64,000 nt of DNA, taken from NCBI RefSeq assembly GCF_003334405.1, contig NZ_QOWM01000006.1. One strand, written 5' to 3'. The notes below the pieces were generated by a model that saw nothing but the letters and a program-made list of their open reading frames with translations, searched no databases and was not told where the DNA came from. The stretch is from Escherichia coli (GTDB lineage: Bacteria; Pseudomonadota; Gammaproteobacteria; Enterobacterales; Enterobacteriaceae). The position numbers and the translations under genes were made by a program. Positions 1-57,961 of the stretch are shown one piece after another. Each line of letters opens with the position of its first letter. Within the stretch, counting starts at the first letter, position 1.

Positions 1-1682
1 GTACCATGCAGGGCCGTCGCTGGTCCGATGGTCTGCACCAGGCTGTGGAAGCGAAAGAAGGTGTGCAGATCCAGAACGAAAACCAAACGCTGGCTTCGAT
101 CACCTTCCAGAACTACTTCCGTCTGTATGAAAAACTGGCGGGGATGACCGGTACTGCTGATACCGAAGCTTTCGAATTTAGCTCAATCTACAAGCTGGAT
201 ACCGTCGTTGTTCCGACCAACCGTCCAATGATTCGTAAAGATCTGCCGGACCTGGTCTACATGACTGAAGCGGAAAAAATTCAGGCGATCATTGAAGATA
301 TCAAAGAACGTACTGCGAAAGGCCAGCCGGTGCTGGTGGGTACTATCTCCATCGAAAAATCGGAGCTGGTGTCAAACGAACTGACCAAAGCCGGTATTAA
401 GCACAACGTCCTGAACGCCAAATTCCACGCCAACGAAGCGGCGATTGTTGCTCAGGCAGGTTATCCGGCTGCGGTGACTATCGCGACCAATATGGCGGGT
501 CGTGGTACAGATATTGTGCTCGGTGGTAGCTGGCAGGCAGAAGTTGCCGCGCTGGAAAATCCGACCGCAGAGCAAATTGAAAAAATTAAAGCCGACTGGC
601 AGGTACGTCACGATGCGGTACTGGAAGCAGGTGGCCTGCATATCATCGGTACCGAGCGTCACGAATCCCGTCGTATCGATAACCAGTTGCGCGGTCGTTC
701 TGGTCGTCAGGGGGATGCTGGTTCTTCCCGTTTCTACCTGTCGATGGAAGATGCGCTGATGCGTATTTTTGCTTCCGACCGAGTATCCGGCATGATGCGT
801 AAACTGGGTATGAAGCCAGGCGAAGCCATTGAACACCCGTGGGTGACTAAAGCGATTGCCAACGCCCAGCGTAAAGTTGAAAGCCGTAACTTCGACATTC
901 GTAAGCAACTGCTGGAATATGATGACGTGGCTAACGATCAGCGTCGCGCCATTTACTCCCAGCGTAACGAACTGTTGGATGTCAGCGATGTGAGCGAAAC
1001 CATTAACAGCATTCGTGAAGATGTGTTCAAAGCGACCATTGATGCCTACATTCCACCACAGTCGCTGGAAGAAATGTGGGATATTCCGGGGCTGCAGGAA
1101 CGTCTGAAGAACGATTTCGACCTCGATTTGCCAATTGCCGAGTGGCTGGATAAAGAACCAGAACTGCATGAAGAGACGCTGCGTGAGCGCATTCTGGCGC
1201 AGTCCATCGAAGTGTATCAGCGTAAAGAAGAAGTGGTTGGTGCTGAGATGATGCGTCACTTCGAGAAAGGCGTCATGCTGCAAACGCTTGACTCCCTGTG
1301 GAAAGAGCACCTGGCAGCGATGGACTATCTGCGTCAGGGTATCCACCTGCGTGGCTACGCACAGAAAGATCCGAAGCAGGAATACAAACGTGAATCGTTC
1401 TCCATGTTTGCAGCGATGCTGGAGTCGTTGAAATATGAAGTTATCAGTACGCTGAGCAAAGTTCAGGTACGTATGCCTGAAGAGGTTGAGGAGCTGGAAC
1501 AACAGCGTCGTATGGAAGCCGAGCGTTTAGCGCAAATGCAGCAGCTTAGCCATCAGGATGACGACTCTGCAGCCGCAGCTGCACTGGCGGCGCAAACCGG
1601 AGAGCGCAAAGTAGGACGTAACGATCCTTGCCCGTGCGGTTCTGGTAAAAAATACAAGCAGTGCCATGGCCGCCTGCAATAA
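1..1682 (+). CDS. secA: Preprotein translocase ATPase SecA, C-terminal part (5' end lies outside the window)
   Basis: 558-aa ORF open to the window start; ends with the zinc-binding tail [17 protein letters not shown] characteristic of SecA. Confidence 0.95.
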
Positions 1683-1703
1683 AAGCTAACTGTTGAAGTA
1701 AAA

Positions 1704-1727
1704 GGCGCAGGATTCTGCGCCTTTTTT
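1704..1727 (+). terminator. Intrinsic terminator-like hairpin after secA (ggcgcag/ctgcgcc stem plus T-tract)
   Basis: 7-bp perfect stem, 4-nt loop, followed by TTTTTT; lies between the secA stop and the mutT start. Confidence 0.6.
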
Positions 1728-1741
1728 ATAGGTTTAAGACA

Positions 1742-2131
1742 ATGAAAAAGCTGCAAATTGCGGTAGGTATTATTCGCAACGAGAACAATGAAATCTTTAT
1801 AACGCGTCGCGCAGCAGATGCGCACATGGCGAATAAACTGGAGTTTCCCGGCGGTAAAATTGAAATGGGTGAAACGCCGGAACAGGCGGTGGTGCGTGAA
1901 CTTCAGGAAGAAGTCGGGATTACCCCCCAACATTTTTCGCTATTTGAAAAACTGGAATATGAATTCCCGGACAGGCATATAACACTGTGGTTTTGGCTGG
2001 TCGAACGCTGGGAAGGGGAGCCGTGGGGTAAAGAAGGGCAACCCGGTGAGTGGATGTCGCTGGTCGGTCTTAATGCCGATGATTTTCCGCCAGCCAATGA
2101 ACCGGTAATTGCGAAGCTTAAACGTCTGTAG
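1742..2131 (+). CDS. mutT: 8-oxo-dGTP diphosphatase (Nudix)
   Basis: 129-aa ORF with Nudix box GGKIEMGETPEQAVVRELQEEVG; sequence recognised as MutT. Confidence 0.95.
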   Translation: MKKLQIAVGIIRNENNEIFITRRAADAHMANKLEFPGGKIEMGETPEQAVVRELQEEVGITPQHFSLFEKLEYEFPDRHITLWFWLVERWEGEPWGKEGQPGEWMSLVGLNADDFPPANEPVIAKLKRL

Positions 2132-2209
2132 GTCAGATAAGGCGTTTTCGCCGCATCCGACATTCGCACACGATGCCTGATGCGACGCTGGCGCGTCTTA
2201 TCAGGCCTA
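2128..2209. repeat. REP/BIME element (two inverted REP units)
   Basis: Units gtaggtcagataaggcgttttcgccgcatccgacat and gatgcctgatgcgacgctggcgcgtcttatcaggcctaa match the E. coli REP family; first unit overlaps the mutT stop codon. Confidence 0.8.
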
Positions 2210-2243
2210 AAGGGATTTCTAACTCATTGATAAATTTGTTTTT

Positions 2244-2326
<83 letters not shown>

Positions 2327-2346
2327 CGTGCGGCATCAGACAAATG

Positions 2347-2544
2347 TCACTGCTTTGGTTCTTCGCTCCAGTCATCGCTTTCGGAAAGATCGCCACTGCT
2401 GGGGATTCGTTTTTCTTCAGCAGCCCATTCTCCGAGGTCGATCAGCTGACAACGTTTGGAGCAAAATGGCCGAAACGGGCTGATTTCACCCCACACCACC
2501 GTTTTCCCGCAGGTTGGGCAATTCACCGTAATAGTTTCTGACAT
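2347..2544 (-). CDS. yacG: DNA gyrase inhibitor YacG (zinc-finger)
   Basis: 65-aa ORF with CPTCGK...CSKRCQ zinc-binding pattern and acidic tail; recognised as YacG. Confidence 0.9.
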
Positions 2545-2553
2545 TTTTACTCC

Positions 2554-3297
2554 TTAGCAACAGGCCAGTTCGAAATCCAGACGTTCCGGTACCTGTCCGT
2601 TTTCAGTGTCCAGCGGCATAAAACGAATGGCAAAACGGCTCTTATGTCCGGAAATTTGCGGATAAAGCTGTGAATCGAGCGACAGATTCAGGCGCAGCAA
2701 GTCGGCATCGCCACCGTTATCCTGATAAAAACCATTCAGGCTGGTTTGTTTACGGAAGGGGGCCGACTGGCGAATTAAATCCAGCACCATGGTAAGTGCC
2801 TGGGTGAGCGGGTTCAGGCTGGCAATCCAGGTTTCTACCTGGCTGTCGCGCTGCGCCTGGGGTAGATGCAGCCAAATGTGCAATGTAGGTAAATCAAAGC
2901 TGCAACAGCCGCCTGGGATGCTCAGTCGCTGACGCACCAGAGCAATCAAACGATCTTCACGCAGAAATTGCCCGATACGCGGCGCGGAAATTAATACGCT
3001 CCCCGCCGCTTTTAACTGCTGAATTAATGCTTCAATACGGCTCTGGTCCACGCCAGGCACGCCAATCCAGGTCTGGAGTTTACGTTGCTGCCGGTCAAGT
3101 TCTTTCAACAGCTCAGTGCGGACTTCGCCGCGCTCGAAAACATCCAGTAATTCACTGACATTACGGAAGAAATGCAGCGCGCCAGCGTGGTCAACGATGG
3201 GTAAATTAACGGTGAGTTGCTGAATCAAAAACTCAATGCGCAGCCATGTACGCATTTTTTCATTTAGTGGATGTTCAAAAAGGACCTGGGTCTGCAT
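2554..3297 (-). CDS. zapD: Cell division protein ZapD
   Basis: 247-aa ORF recognised as ZapD (YacF); 1-nt overlap with the coaE stop. Confidence 0.9.
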
Positions 3298-3917
3298 TAC
3301 GGTTTTTCCTGTGAGACAAACTGCGACGCAAGCTGCAAATAGTGTGCGTGCAGGCGGGCAACATCCGATGCGATAGCATCCGGTGCGCCGTTATTATCAA
3401 TGACGTCATCTGCCACGGCAAGGCGGGCTTCGCGCGTTGCCTGAGCAGCAAGGATTTGTTCGACATGCTCGCGAGTTACATCATCGCGCTGCATGGTGCG
3501 CTTAAGTTGCGTTTCTGGGCTGACATCCACCACAAGCACTCGATTCGCTTTTTTATACAGTGAGTTTTCTACCAGCAATGGCACAACCCACAGTACATAG
3601 GGGGAAGTAGCTTGCTGGATCTGGTGTTGCGTCTCTTGCTGAATCAGCGGATGCAGCAGGGCGTTAAGCCAGTTTTTCTCTTCCGGGTTGGCGAAGATCC
3701 GCTCGCGCAAGGCCCGGCGCTGCAATGTTCCATCAGCAGCAATCATGTTAGCGCCAAAGTGATCAGCAATGGCATGTAGCGCAGGTGCACCTGGTTCAAC
3801 CACCTGACGCGCAATAATATCGGCATCAATGACGTTAATTCCGAGATCAGCAAACGCATTGGCAACGGTACTCTTGCCACTGCCAATGCCTCCCGTTAAG
3901 GCAACTATATACCTCAT
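3297..3917 (-). CDS. coaE: Dephospho-CoA kinase
   Basis: 206-aa ORF with P-loop GGIGSGKST at the N-terminus. Confidence 0.95.
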
Positions 3918-10833: not shown

Positions 10834-10841
10834 AGATTATT

Positions 10842-10866
10842 GCCCTCACCCTGTACGGGTGAGGGC
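10842..10866. terminator. Bidirectional terminator-like hairpin between convergent ampE and aroP
   Basis: Perfect palindrome gccctcaccc-tgtac-gggtgagggc located between the two convergent stop codons. Confidence 0.55.
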
Positions 10867-52801: not shown

Positions 52802-55231
52802 GTGTCGTCGTTGCCCGTTGCTGCCGTCTTACCTGAATTACTTACCGCTCTCGATTGTGCGCCGCAGGTATTATTAAGTGCGCCGACCGGGGCCGGGAAA
52901 TCAACCTGGCTGCCGCTGCAACTGCTGGCGCATCCCGGCATTAACGGGAAAATTATCCTGCTGGAGCCGCGTCGTCTGGCGGCGCGTAACGTCGCGCAAC
53001 GGCTGGCGGAGCTGCTTAACGAAAAGCCAGGCGATACCGTTGGCTACCGGATGCGTGCGCAAAACTGCGTCGGGCCGAATACCCGCCTGGAAGTGGTTAC
53101 CGAAGGCGTGCTGACGCGCATGATCCAGCGTGACCCGGAACTGAGCGGTGTTGGACTGGTGATCCTTGATGAATTTCATGAGCGCAGCTTGCAGGCGGAT
53201 TTGGCGTTGGCGCTGTTACTCGATGTGCAACAAGGTCTGCGTGATGACCTTAAACTGCTGATTATGTCGGCTACCCTGGACAACGACCGCTTGCAGCAAA
53301 TGCTGCCAGAAGCGCCTGTCGTCATCTCAGAAGGGCGCTCGTTTCCGGTTGAACGCCGTTATTTACCGCTGCCCGCGCATCAGCGTTTTGACGATGCCGT
53401 TGCGGTAGCCACCGCTGAAATGCTGCGTCAGGAAAGCGGATCATTACTGTTATTTTTACCTGGCGTCGGAGAAATTCAGCGTGTGCAGGAACAACTGGCT
53501 TCGCGCATCGGCAGTGATGTATTGCTCTGCCCGCTGTATGGCGCGTTGTCGCTGAACGATCAGCGAAAAGCGATCCTCCCGGCACCGCAAGGGATGCGCA
53601 AAGTGGTGCTGGCGACCAATATTGCTGAAACCAGTTTAACCATTGAAGGTATTCGTCTGGTGGTGGATTGTGCCCAGGAGCGTGTGGCGCGTTTTGATCC
53701 GCGCACGGGGCTTACGCGACTGATTACTCAACGCGTTAGCCAGGCATCCATGACGCAGCGTGCCGGGCGCGCCGGGCGTCTGGAGCCGGGTATCAGCCTG
53801 CATTTAATCGCCAAAGAACAAGCAGAACGCGCCGCGGCGCAAAGTGAACCGGAGATCTTACAAAGCGATCTTTCCGGTTTGCTGATGGAATTACTGCAAT
53901 GGGGATGCAGCGATCCGGCGCAGATGAGCTGGCTGGATCAACCGCCAGTAGTGAATCTACTGGCCGCGAAACGTCTGTTACAAATGCTGGGGGCACTGGA
54001 GGGTGAACGGCTTAGTGCGCAAGGGCAAAAAATGGCAGCGCTGGGTAACGATCCGCGTTTAGCGGCAATGCTGGTTAGCGCGAAGAACGACGACGAAGCT
54101 GCTACCGCGGCAAAAATTGCCGCCATTCTCGAAGAGCCGCCACGGATGGGCAATAGTGACCTGGGCGTGGCGTTTTCGCGCAATCAACCAGCCTGGCAGC
54201 AACGTAGTCAGCAACTGTTAAAACGCTTAAACGTACGTGGCGGTGAGGCAGACAGTTCGCTTATCGCGCCGCTACTTGCCGGGGCGTTTGCCGATCGCAT
54301 TGCTCGTCGCCGTGGGCAAGATGGACGCTATCAACTGGCAAACGGCATGGGAGCGATGCTCGATGCCAACGACGCGCTAAGCCGCCACGAATGGTTGATC
54401 GCACCGTTATTATTGCAGGGCAGCGCCTCGCCGGATGCGCGGATTTTACTGGCGCTGCTGGTCGATATTGATGAGTTAGTACAACGCTGCTCGCAGCTGG
54501 TACAGCAGTCTGACACTGTGGAGTGGGATGACGCGCAAGGTACGCTGAAAGCCTGGCGTCGGCTACAAATCGGTCAGTTGACGGTGAAAGTGCAGCCGCT
54601 GGCGAAACCGTCAGAAGACGAGTTGCATCAGGCGATGCTTAATGGCATCCGTGATAAAGGTTTAAGCGTGCTCAACTGGACGGCGGAAGCGGAACAGCTA
54701 CGCTTGCGTTTGTTATGCGCCGCAAAGTGGTTGCCGGAATATGACTGGCCAGCGGTTGATGATGAAAGTTTATTGGCAGCGCTGGAAACGTGGCTGCTGC
54801 CACATATGACTGGCGTACATTCACTACGCGGCCTGAAATCACTCGACATTTATCAGGCACTACGCGGATTACTTGATTGGGGAATGCAGCAACGTCTGGA
54901 TAGTGAATTGCCTGCGCATTACACTGTGCCGACGGGAAGCCGGATCGCCATTCGTTATCATGAAGATAACCCGCCCGCGCTGGCGGTGAGAATGCAAGAG
55001 ATGTTTGGCGAGGCCACCAATCCGACGATCGCCCAGGGGCGCGTGCCGCTGGTGCTGGAGTTGCTTTCACCTGCCCAAAGGCCATTACAAATCACACGAG
55101 ATTTGAGCGCCTTCTGGAAAGGAGCGTACCGTGAGGTGCAAAAAGAGATGAAAGGGCGTTATCCCAAACATGTCTGGCCGGACGACCCGGCAAATACTGC
55201 ACCGACGCGACGGACGAAAAAGTATTCGTAA
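52802..55231 (+). CDS. hrpB: ATP-dependent RNA helicase HrpB (DEAH-box)
   Basis: Start placed at in-frame GTG (VSSLPVAAV.. read as MSSLPV); Walker A APTGAGKST and DEFHER motif present. Confidence 0.9.
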   Translation: MSSLPVAAVLPELLTALDCAPQVLLSAPTGAGKSTWLPLQLLAHPGINGKIILLEPRRLAARNVAQRLAELLNEKPGDTVGYRMRAQNCVGPNTRLEVVTEGVLTRMIQRDPELSGVGLVILDEFHERSLQADLALALLLDVQQGLRDDLKLLIMSATLDNDRLQQMLPEAPVVISEGRSFPVERRYLPLPAHQRFDDAVAVATAEMLRQESGSLLLFLPGVGEIQRVQEQLASRIGSDVLLCPLYGALSLNDQRKAILPAPQGMRKVVLATNIAETSLTIEGIRLVVDCAQERVARFDPRTGLTRLITQRVSQASMTQRAGRAGRLEPGISLHLIAKEQAERAAAQSEPEILQSDLSGLLMELLQWGCSDPAQMSWLDQPPVVNLLAAKRLLQMLGALEGERLSAQGQKMAALGNDPRLAAMLVSAKNDDEAATAAKIAAILEEPPRMGNSDLGVAFSRNQPAWQQRSQQLLKRLNVRGGEADSSLIAPLLAGAFADRIARRRGQDGRYQLANGMGAMLDANDALSRHEWLIAPLLLQGSASPDARILLALLVDIDELVQRCSQLVQQSDTVEWDDAQGTLKAWRRLQIGQLTVKVQPLAKPSEDELHQAMLNGIRDKGLSVLNWTAEAEQLRLRLLCAAKWLPEYDWPAVDDESLLAALETWLLPHMTGVHSLRGLKSLDIYQALRGLLDWGMQQRLDSELPAHYTVPTGSRIAIRYHEDNPPALAVRMQEMFGEATNPTIAQGRVPLVLELLSPAQRPLQITRDLSAFWKGAYREVQKEMKGRYPKHVWPDDPANTAPTRRTKKYS

Positions 55232-55243
55232 GGTTGGTTTTCT

Positions 55244-55328
55244 CCCTCTCCCTGTGGGAGAGGGCCGGGGTGAGGGCATCAGCGCGCACGTTCACCCTCA
55301 CCCTAACCCTCTCCCTCAAGGGAGAGGG
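55244..55328. repeat. Composite GC-rich palindromic element with three perfect 9-bp stems, between hrpB and mrcB
   Basis: ccctctccc-tgt-gggagaggg (55244-55264); gggtgaggg ... ccctcaccc (55268-55303); ccctctccc-tcaa-gggagaggg (55307-55328). Not a classical REP. Confidence 0.8.
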
Positions 55329-55426
55329 GACCGATCGAGCACAAATTTTGAGAGATATCTTCTTCTGTCTTGTAACAGAAGAACAGAAAATCGGGCTTTT
55401 GCGCCTGAATATTGCGGAGAAAAAGC

Positions 55427-57961
55427 ATGGCCGGGAATGACCGCGAGCCAATTGGACGCAAAGGGAAACCGACGCGTCCGGTCAAACAAAAGGTAAGCCG
55501 TCGTCGTTACGAAGATGACGATGATTACGACGATTATGATGACTATGAGGATGAAGAACCGATGCCGCGCAAAGGTAAGGGCAAAGGCAAAGGGCGTAAG
55601 CCTCGTGGCAAACGCGGCTGGCTATGGCTACTGCTAAAACTGGCTATCGTTTTTGCCGTGCTGATCGCCATTTACGGCGTTTATCTCGATCAAAAAATTC
55701 GTAGCCGTATTGATGGCAAGGTCTGGCAACTGCCTGCGGCAGTTTATGGCCGAATGGTCAATCTTGAGCCAGACATGACCATCAGCAAGAACGAGATGGT
55801 GAAGCTGCTGGAGGCGACCCAGTATCGTCAGGTGTCGAAAATGACCCGTCCTGGCGAATTTACCGTGCAGGCCAACAGCATTGAGATGATTCGCCGTCCG
55901 TTTGATTTCCCGGACAGTAAAGAAGGACAGGTGCGCGCGCGTCTGACCTTTGATGGCGATCATCTGGCGACGATCGTCAATATGGAGAACAACCGTCAGT
56001 TCGGTTTCTTCCGTCTTGATCCGCGTCTGATCACCATGATCTCTTCGCCAAACGGTGAGCAGCGTCTGTTTGTGCCGCGCAGTGGTTTCCCGGATTTGCT
56101 GGTGGATACTTTGCTGGCGACAGAAGACCGTCATTTTTACGAGCATGATGGAATCAGTCTCTACTCAATCGGACGTGCGGTGCTGGCAAACCTGACCGCC
56201 GGACGCACGGTACAGGGTGCGAGTACGCTGACGCAACAGCTGGTGAAAAACCTGTTCCTCTCCAGCGAGCGTTCTTACTGGCGTAAAGCGAACGAAGCTT
56301 ACATGGCGCTGATCATGGACGCGCGTTACAGCAAAGACCGTATTCTTGAGCTGTATATGAACGAGGTGTATCTCGGTCAGAGCGGCGACAACGAAATCCG
56401 CGGCTTCCCGCTGGCAAGCTTGTATTACTTTGGTCGCCCGGTAGAAGAGCTAAGCCTCGACCAGCAGGCGCTGTTAGTCGGTATGGTGAAAGGGGCGTCC
56501 ATCTACAACCCGTGGCGTAACCCAAAACTGGCGCTGGAGCGACGTAATCTGGTGCTGCGTCTGCTGCAACAGCAACAGATTATTGATCAAGAACTCTATG
56601 ACATGTTGAGTGCCCGTCCGCTGGGGGTTCAGCCGCGCGGTGGGGTGATCTCTCCTCAGCCAGCCTTTATGCAACTGGTGCGTCAGGAGCTGCAGGCAAA
56701 ACTGGGCGATAAGGTAAAAGATCTCTCCGGCGTGAAGATCTTCACTACCTTTGACTCGGTGGCCCAGGACGCGGCAGAAAAAGCCGCCGTGGAAGGCATT
56801 CCGGCACTGAAGAAACAGCGTAAGTTGAGCGATCTTGAAACTGCGATTGTGGTCGTCGACCGCTTTAGTGGTGAAGTTCGTGCGATGGTCGGAGGTTCTG
56901 AGCCGCAGTTTGCGGGCTACAACCGTGCGATGCAGGCGCGTCGTTCGATTGGTTCCCTTGCAAAACCAGCGACTTATCTGACGGCCTTAAGCCAGCCGAA
57001 AATCTATCGTCTGAATACGTGGATTGCGGATGCGCCAATTGCGCTGCGTCAGCCGAATGGCCAGGTCTGGTCACCGCAGAATGATGACCGTCGTTATAGC
57101 GAAAGCGGCAGAGTGATGCTGGTGGATGCGTTGACCCGTTCGATGAACGTGCCGACGGTAAATCTGGGGATGGCGCTGGGGCTGCCTGCGGTTACGGAGA
57201 CCTGGATTAAACTGGGCGTACCGAAAGATCAGTTGCATCCGGTTCCGGCAATGCTGCTGGGGGCGTTGAACTTAACGCCAATCGAAGTGGCGCAGGCATT
57301 CCAGACCATCGCCAGCGGTGGTAACCGTGCACCGCTTTCTGCGCTGCGTTCGGTAATCGCGGAAGATGGCAAAGTGCTGTATCAGAGCTTCCCGCAGGCG
57401 GAACGCGCTGTTCCGGCGCAGGCGGCGTATCTGACACTATGGACCATGCAGCAGGTGGTACAACGCGGTACGGGTCGTCAGCTTGGGGCGAAATACCCGA
57501 ACCTGCATCTGGCAGGGAAAACAGGGACTACCAACAATAACGTAGATACCTGGTTTGCGGGCATTGACGGCAGCACGGTGACCATCACCTGGGTCGGCCG
57601 TGATAACAACCAGCCGACCAAACTGTATGGTGCCAGCGGGGCAATGTCGATTTATCAGCGTTATCTGGCTAACCAGACGCCAACGCCGCTGAATCTTGTT
57701 CCGCCAGAAGATATTGCAGATATGGGCGTGGACTACGACGGCAACTTTGTTTGCAGCGGTGGCATGCGTATCTTGCCGGTCTGGACCAGCGATCCGCAAT
57801 CGCTGTGCCAGCAGAGCGAGATGCAGCAGCAGCCGTCAGGCAATCCGTTTGATCAGTCTTCTCAGCCGCAGCAACAGCCGCAACAGCAACCTGCTCAGCA
57901 AGAGCAGAAAGACAGCGACGGTGTAGCCGGTTGGATCAAGGATATGTTTGGTAGTAATTAA
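55427..57961 (+). CDS. mrcB: Penicillin-binding protein 1B (bifunctional glycosyltransferase/transpeptidase)
   Basis: Start placed at [13 protein letters not shown]..; internal Met (MPRKGKG, near 55562) corresponds to the known shorter isoform start. Confidence 0.95.

Follow-up and report, generated by a model that had tools for sequence, protein, structure and literature searches.

REP elements, BIMEs and REPINs are small intergenic palindromes that lie in 3' UTRs, often as inverted pairs that fold as one long hairpin; in the absence of a U-tract they set mRNA 3' ends or make them more stable, and they vary from one strain to another. Another intergenic repeat, BoxC, a small non-coding palindrome dispersed in E. 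coli and related Enterobacteriaceae, was reportedly described by Bergler in 1992 and by Bachellier in 1996, and is said to have been described as PIT elements by Hoyne and Maher between 2000 and 2002. After 30 years, we know of no accepted function and no accepted dispersal mechanism for BoxC, and no RAYT-like transposase for it is known to us.

More recently, the repeat "earlier described as BoxC" and rediscovered as PIT elements was renamed TMECO and given the consensus CCCTCNCCC-N3-6-GGGNGAGGG-N3-GGGNGAGGG, with 23 copies in MG1655, every one of which is intergenic (Holder, 2015; PMC4666352); a separate survey, of families of stem-loop repeats, likewise came upon BoxC and counted 22 copies. 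Types A and B occur together as inverted copies at five loci of MG1655, and the pair formed by copies 1 and 2 is named among them (PMC4666352). The same sequences appear as the HPGQ motifs HPG1 and HPG2 (dGGGAGAGGGTTAGGGTGAGGG and dGGGAGAGGGCCGGGGTGAGGG) in another study, where the unit is a G-rich 21-mer with an upstream C-block and a regulatory switch was proposed (Kaplan, 2016; PMC5100583), whereas the data presented here favour a hairpin and a dispensable element.

One such pair lies between hrpB and mrcB in the 64-kb stretch of Escherichia coli DNA analysed here (the window). Judged by its sequence, the segment 55236-55345 is an inverted (convergent) BoxC pair, with a type B copy on the plus strand and a type A copy on the minus strand, and the element is already known, being catalogued at this very locus in both papers (as TMECO 1 and 2, and as HPGQ 5 and 6). 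In Table 1 of Holder (2015; PMC4666352), entry no. 1 is CCCTCTCCCTGTGGGAGAGGGCCGGGGTGAGGGC, type B, at MG1655 164547-164580 (+), and entry no. 2 is CCCTCTCCCTTGAGGGAGAGGGTTAGGGTGAGGGT, type A, at 164631-164597 (-). With the coordinate offset fixed through hrpB and mrcB, these two entries map with identical sequence to 55244-55277 and 55294-55328 of the window, and a regular-expression search for the three-block consensus gives exactly two matches in the 64 kb, at 55244-55276 (+) and 55295-55328 (-). HPGQ 5 and HPGQ 6, tabulated between hrpB and mrcB, are the same two sequences (Kaplan, 2016; PMC5100583). The locus shares with the published BoxC/PIT/TMECO elements its sequence, its coordinates, the three-block motif, the TTA loop of type A, the CCG loop of type B and the pairing of A and B as inverted copies, here B(+) with the CCG loop and A(-) with the TTA loop as published for TMECO 1 and 2, and the element itself shows no difference from them. 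What is added beyond the BoxC/TMECO papers is a longer conserved unit with tails, of about 110 bp per pair, together with allele frequencies in 5426 genomes, an allele in the opposite orientation, the finding of BoxC at this spot in other genera and a coincidence with Term-seq 3' ends.

The original prediction had described three perfect 9-bp stems built from two 9-mers immediately after hrpB, and this was confirmed by a repeat finder, which returns three perfect 9-10-bp stems along with one 27-nt imperfect inverted repeat across both halves. Read directly from the sequence, the hrpB stop codon is TAA (55229-55231) and the first 9-mer block begins 13 nt downstream; the plus strand then runs through CCCTCTCCC (55244-55252), GGGAGAGGG (55256-55264) and GGGTGAGGG (55268-55276), separated by TGT and CCG, and after 18 nt through CCCTCACCC (55295-55303), CCCTCTCCC (55307-55315) and GGGAGAGGG (55320-55328), separated by TAA and TCAA. 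The counts of both 9-mers are far above chance: GGGAGAGGG occurs four times in the 64-kb window (both strands), always inside 55244-55328, against an expected 0.22, and GGGTGAGGG five times (both strands), twice in 55244-55328, against an expected 0.31, with 0 of 100 shuffles as high in either case. The GEGRGEG-type translation reported for this segment is correct. Around the locus the window differs from K-12 MG1655 by 2 mismatches in 6 kb, both within hrpB (T/C at 54491 and C/A at 55110), and it is not exactly MG1655; farther upstream, somewhere between 18549 and 52697, the coordinate offset to MG1655 shifts by 1 nt.

When the segment 55232-55345 was searched with blastn against 5426 complete E. 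coli genomes, it was found at a median of 13 places per genome and a maximum of 27, in 5399 of the 5426 genomes, and it is therefore a dispersed repeat and not a unique sequence. The earlier suggestion of a less characterised repeat family holds as far as a dispersed intergenic family is concerned, but the family has a name and this copy of it stands in two papers; box C, proposed as one of several catalogued repeats for comparison, turned out to be the family itself. The element had also been said not to be a REP, and indeed 55232-55345 has no core of the GCCGGATG or GCCTGATGCG type, as carried by the imperfect REP palindrome of about 35-40 bp, while the Rfam matches to the REP-derived naRNA4 lie elsewhere, at 2131-2324. 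The BoxC pair is like a REP or REPIN in that it is an inverted doublet folding as one long hairpin, and REP-like sequences are found at the same spot in Salmonella and Citrobacter. It is unlike REP in having no GCCGGATG-type core, in its three-block purine/pyrimidine design and in its copy number, which is about 20-30 for BoxC and several hundred for REP. ERIC/IRU is likewise an enterobacterial dispersed intergenic repeat, but it is about 127 bp long, has an unrelated consensus and overlaps with BoxC over about 9-11 nt only.

In the RefSeq annotation of MG1655 there is no repeat feature at the hrpB-mrcB locus, and a search of the whole window against Rfam at the gathering threshold gave no match at the element. 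At an E-value threshold, the matches at the element are sub-threshold eukaryotic miRNA hairpins only (at most 29 bits, compared with gathering thresholds of 58-105 bits), and these families were rejected as an identity, with scores below gathering, and taken as chance matches to any long GC hairpin. Elsewhere in the window, the gathering-threshold matches are STnc40 (1658-1727, +), naRNA4 twice (2131-2207 and 2247-2324, +) and tp2 (13599-13712, -). The term BoxC is absent from the main text of a 2026 paper on HusR.

In an alignment with six other BoxC loci of MG1655, where the four convergent B(+)/A(-) pairs are hrpB-mrcB, fepB-entC, ygfF-gcvP and alx-sstT, conservation reaches past the 34-36-nt core and takes in a T-rich tract (TTTTCT) before the B copy and an A-side tail (GGGGACCGATCGAGCAC) after the A copy. 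At hrpB-mrcB, the unit begins with the 5' tail of the type-B copy, GGTTTTCT (55236-55243, +), which is T-rich ahead of the first C-block and conserved in the four convergent pairs and in two solo type-B copies of MG1655; a conserved T-rich tract ahead of the C-rich block has likewise been reported by Kaplan (2016; PMC5100583). The type-B copy itself (BoxC/PIT/TMECO no. 1/HPGQ 5; CCCTCTCCC-TGT-GGGAGAGGG-CCG-GGGTGAGGG-C; 55244-55277, +) is followed by the spacer ATCAGCGCGCACGTTC (55278-55293, no strand), which would form the loop of the long hairpin and which opens with the conserved 12-nt 3' tail of type B, and then by the type-A copy (BoxC/PIT/TMECO no. 2/HPGQ 6; CCCTCTCCC-TTGA-GGGAGAGGG-TTA-GGGTGAGGG-T; 55294-55328, -), both copies being assigned by consensus match and the published tables. 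The alignment of the MG1655 copies places the 5' tail of the type-A copy, which reads GACCGATCGAGCAC on the plus strand, at 55329-55342 (-).

Further features of the unit recur at other loci. The sequence GGGGAC-N-G...G(A/T)GC(A/G)C after the A copy is kept in 4 of 4 convergent pairs and at lldD-trmL, the type-B 3' tail CATCAGCGCGCAC is common to the solo type-B copies of xynR-argF and ilvC-ppiC, and, compared with the three remaining convergent pairs, hrpB-mrcB has a spacer about 11 nt shorter. The composite unit spans about 55236-55345 (with its 3' edge at about 55342-55345), or about 110 bp, with 64% G+C. The range originally given, which ran to 55426, is too long, as the repeat stops at about 55342-55345 and 55346-55426 is a separate conserved segment. 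A study of evolution under amoxicillin (PMC12406687) recorded an A>C and a T>G variant at what are window positions 55278 and 55292, with allele frequencies of 0.20 and 0.31, and called one of them "mrcB promoter -135T>G"; both map to the loop of the BoxC hairpin, and they may be sequence-context artefacts.

As RNA, the whole pair is predicted to fold into one long interrupted hairpin, left half with right half, at -74.2 kcal/mol (z = -7.8); as a DNA single strand it reaches -33.7 kcal/mol (z = -5.75). The arms of the hairpin pair over about 40 bp, and the four MG1655 pairs have the same layout. A fold into three local hairpins is weaker, at -53.5 kcal/mol, and the three-stem architecture first proposed for the element has to be recast: the stems are perfect, but they belong to two inverted three-block repeats, and the lowest-energy fold is one long hairpin.

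The state of the locus was surveyed in the 5426 complete E. coli genomes, where a K-12-type call was defined as coverage of at least 80% of a 481-bp query; this query is matched at 99.8% by K-12 strains and at 100% by many non-K-12 strains. The K-12-type pair is present at hrpB-mrcB in 3536 of the 5426 genomes, the exact empty junction TCGTGAAGACCAAAGCAAATTTGAGAG in at least 1471 (at least 27%), and a pair in the opposite orientation, as in strain E69, in 32. Internal deletions were found of 64 bp in strain DEC9B (between two GGGAGAGGG copies), of 63 bp in strain 23CRST031 (between two CCCTCTCCCT copies) and of 12 bp in strain 99-3311 (ending in the direct repeats of the element); as all of these end in internal 9-10-bp direct repeats, they carry the signature of slippage.

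A scan based on the HrpB C-terminus, with one genome per species, gave 80 loci, in which the variable stretch was taken as that between the hrpB stop and a conserved TTGAGAGAT core. An empty intergenic region of 93 nt was found in E. albertii, E. whittamii and Escherichia sp. MOD1-EC7003, equal in length and near-identical in sequence to the empty allele of E. coli and, in E. whittamii, identical to it. Because the site is empty in sister Escherichia species, the empty state would be ancestral and the pair an insertion, a reading that draws on parsimony (the empty outgroups) and on the two orientations. Comparison of empty and filled junctions revealed no target-site duplication; the K-12-type allele replaces about 8-12 nt of the empty junction, and hrpB ends in TAA there instead of TGA. 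The pair is dispensable, being absent from at least 1471 of 5426 E. coli genomes, from E. albertii and from E. whittamii.

In other genera, the same spot is occupied by the REP-like sequences mentioned above (Salmonella, Citrobacter) or by a single type-B BoxC (Enterobacter, Leclercia, Lelliottia, Phytobacter). In Phytobacter diazotrophicus, a spacer of 368 bp (L070:3604-3972) holds three tandem units of about 95 bp, each made of a type-B BoxC and an AT-rich hairpin, and in Enterobacteriaceae bacterium RIT691 a spacer of 509 bp (L065:3604-4113) holds five BoxC copies. A pair in the A(+)/B(-) arrangement is found in E. coli E69 (L015:3604-3720) and in Lelliottia sp. V86_10. Absence from close relatives, which had been put forward as an argument against a repeat family, was seen in E. 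albertii and E. whittamii, whereas in Enterobacter, Leclercia, Lelliottia and Phytobacter BoxC is present at this spot. The E69 allele was also considered as a simple inversion of the K-12 allele, and this was rejected, as the B half is identical in 52 of 52 positions but the A half differs, as do both flanks (82% identity overall); the sequence comparison suggests instead that the E69-type pair is an independent insertion. Taken across taxa, the pattern looks as if insertions had entered a permissive spot time and again and then decayed, and the allele series at hrpB-mrcB, with an ancestral empty state, two orientations and slippage derivatives, is a clean natural system for the study of BoxC mobility.

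The pair also coincides with a mapped RNA 3' end. Among the entries of supplementary file 1 of a Term-seq study (Adams et al., 2021, eLife; PMC7815308), the end at 164636 (+), located in the window by its flanking sequence, falls at 55333; it is recorded for M63 glucose at OD 0.4 with an average of 987 reads, in one of three conditions, and is classed there as "orphan", 94 nt upstream of mrcB. This position is 5 nt beyond the last GGGAGAGGG block and falls in the 3' arm of the outer stem (which reaches to about 55336), near the base of the hairpin, and it fits the earlier idea of an element acting at mRNA 3' ends or in mRNA stability. A text search of the same supplementary file gave ends within a few nucleotides of GAGGGGAC at other MG1655 BoxC copies (3781065+, the "primary" end of lldD, 4231270-, 632098+ and 624567-), as well as ends right after the first hairpin at the copies at 3959467- and 847200-. 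As far as these entries go, they suggest that an RNA 3'-end hairpin is a property of the BoxC family as a whole, and the coincidence at several loci is modestly useful for the question of BoxC function. The signal at 55333 is weak and could be a degradation intermediate of no consequence.

The explanation that we consider probable is that the element is a BoxC pair inserted as a dispensable selfish or neutral sequence, whose transcribed hairpin fixes an RNA 3' end. The pair would have entered, in either orientation, the one permissive spot of the spacer, which has the hrpB stop codon on one side and the conserved mrcB leader on the other, and slippage between internal direct repeats of 9-10 bp would have eroded it. 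Transcribed together with hrpB, it would form a very stable long hairpin that fixes the RNA 3' end at its base (55333), most likely by blocking 3'-to-5' exonucleases, by analogy with REP, or otherwise by causing RNA polymerase to pause or terminate without a U-tract. It would then act as a REP-like 3'-end or stability hairpin and not as a canonical terminator, and we infer that it has no selected function at this locus. A further-reaching version, proposed only tentatively, is that the A+B pair of about 110 bp with its tails may be what transposes in a REPIN-like non-autonomous element, mobilised by an enzyme still to be found; such an element may have arrived separately in each orientation at the same few bases behind the hrpB stop in E. 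coli, and again in several other genera, and BoxC hairpins, once transcribed, may determine mRNA 3' ends across the genome with no U-tract.

A terminator role had been among the first proposals, and a Rho-independent terminator that ends hrpB transcription and insulates mrcB would account for the GC-rich hairpin of high stability that follows the hrpB stop directly and for an RNA 3' end 5 nt past the last stem. It would also agree with the Rho-termination table of Adams et al. (2021; PMC7815308), which has no entry near 1644xx-1649xx, although this table omits the condition in which the 3' end was recorded and hrpB is weakly expressed. However, on reading the sequence no U-tract follows any of the stems (the next sequence is GACCGATCGAG), and a consensus scan of 55100-55500 found neither a terminator-like nor a sigma-70-like site. 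The tests of Hoyne and Maher, as cited by Holder (2015; PMC4666352), detected neither promoter nor terminator activity, nor any effect in vivo, and at least 27% of E. coli and the sister species are without the element and keep the same mrcB leader, all of which makes a terminator of this kind unlikely. The site of protein binding ahead of the mrcB promoter that had also been envisaged, whether as an operator or as a nucleoid-protein site, is far less probable again. A palindromic repeat upstream of mrcB, and the naming of a variant inside it as an mrcB promoter mutation in the 2025 evolution study (PMC12406687), might point that way, but no known transcription-factor motif was matched (Kaplan, 2016; PMC5100583), the variants are sub-clonal (0.20 and 0.31), have a GGG/hairpin context and might be artefacts of sequencing, and the element is missing in many strains and in sister species while the mrcB leader is invariant; no evidence for such a site was found. 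A literature search gave nothing usable on a mapped mrcB promoter or transcription start, and the pair might lie in the mrcB 5' UTR and not only in the hrpB 3' UTR.

At the level of DNA, it can be proposed that the G-rich strand (GGGAGAGGGCCGGGGTGAGGG, with four G-tracts) forms a triplex or a G-quadruplex that switches neighbour genes or stalls replication, leading to local instability. Consensus oligonucleotides have been shown to form triplexes by CD and NMR (Holder, 2015; PMC4666352) and to give a quadruplex or a hairpin depending on the ion (Kaplan, 2016; PMC5100583), TM-containing loci have been described as varying more between strains, and several deletion alleles exist at hrpB-mrcB itself. 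In vivo DMS footprinting, though, did not support the triplex, a duplex forms once the complementary strand is added, and neither a functional class nor a fixed distance to neighbour genes was found (PMC4666352). The deletions end in 9-10-bp direct repeats, for which ordinary slippage or hairpin bypass suffices without a triplex, and the G-quadruplex option amounts to only -12.6 kcal/mol compared with about -17 to -74 kcal/mol for the competing hairpins. We regard such a DNA structure as a doubtful explanation of the locus, and a BoxC pair acting, if at all, through its transcribed hairpin remains the preferred one.

As mentioned above, the segment 55346-55426 (+) lies outside the repeat and forms the conserved mrcB leader, with a hairpin at 55360-55368/55375-55383, a small stem at 55392-55408 and a Shine-Dalgarno sequence (GGAG) at 55416-55419 (+) ahead of the mrcB ATG at 55427. 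It is unchanged in the empty-site, deleted and filled alleles of E. coli, and across many genera of Enterobacteriaceae it is an 86-nt block of almost constant length (64 distinct sequences). In the leader hairpin, 6 of 10 pairs are changed on both sides, 0 of 500 shuffles reach the observed covariation score, and 95% of its cells are paired compared with 50-58% when the partners are slid. Many of its pairs are U-G wobbles when read on the plus strand, which points to an RNA structure in the mrcB sense. No Rfam family matches the hairpin, and it may be an uncharacterised 5'-UTR structure of mrcB, the gene of PBP1b; this adjoining leader with its covarying hairpin, outside Rfam, is of residual value.

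The remaining copies of GGGTGAGGG in the window are at 10843-10851 (-), 10857-10865 (+) and 18529-18537 (+), where they had been noted between ampE and aroP (10843-10865) and upstream of lpd (18529-18537), and from which a kinship of three hairpins had been proposed. The ampE/aroP hairpin at 10842-10866 (GCCCTCACCC/GGGTGAGGGC) has two blocks only and flanks unrelated to BoxC, and in 5369 of 5426 E. coli genomes its locus is present once and does not vary in length. In the Term-seq entries of PMC7815308, the "primary" 3' end of aroP corresponds to window position 10838 (-), a few nucleotides past the stem. The two genes are convergent, and the hairpin is a locus-specific 3'-end hairpin of aroP between them. 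A common family for the BoxC pair, this hairpin and the lpd site was therefore rejected, as only a 9-mer is shared and there is no wider homology, and the proposed link between the three can be dropped.

The lpd-upstream site is, from its match to published ERIC sequences, the core of an ERIC/IRU element and not BoxC. In the aceF-lpd intergenic region (18494-18537), ERIC1R (as reverse complement) matches at 20 of 22 and ERIC2 at 21 of 22 positions, back to back, and the presence of GGGGTGAG in the ERIC core accounts for the third 9-mer site, at 18529. Among strains, the region carries an indel of about 117 bp, found in about 5 copies in each genome, and 3433 of 5426 genomes have its full-length form; Term-seq 3' ends are listed inside this ERIC element at window positions 18543 and 18549.
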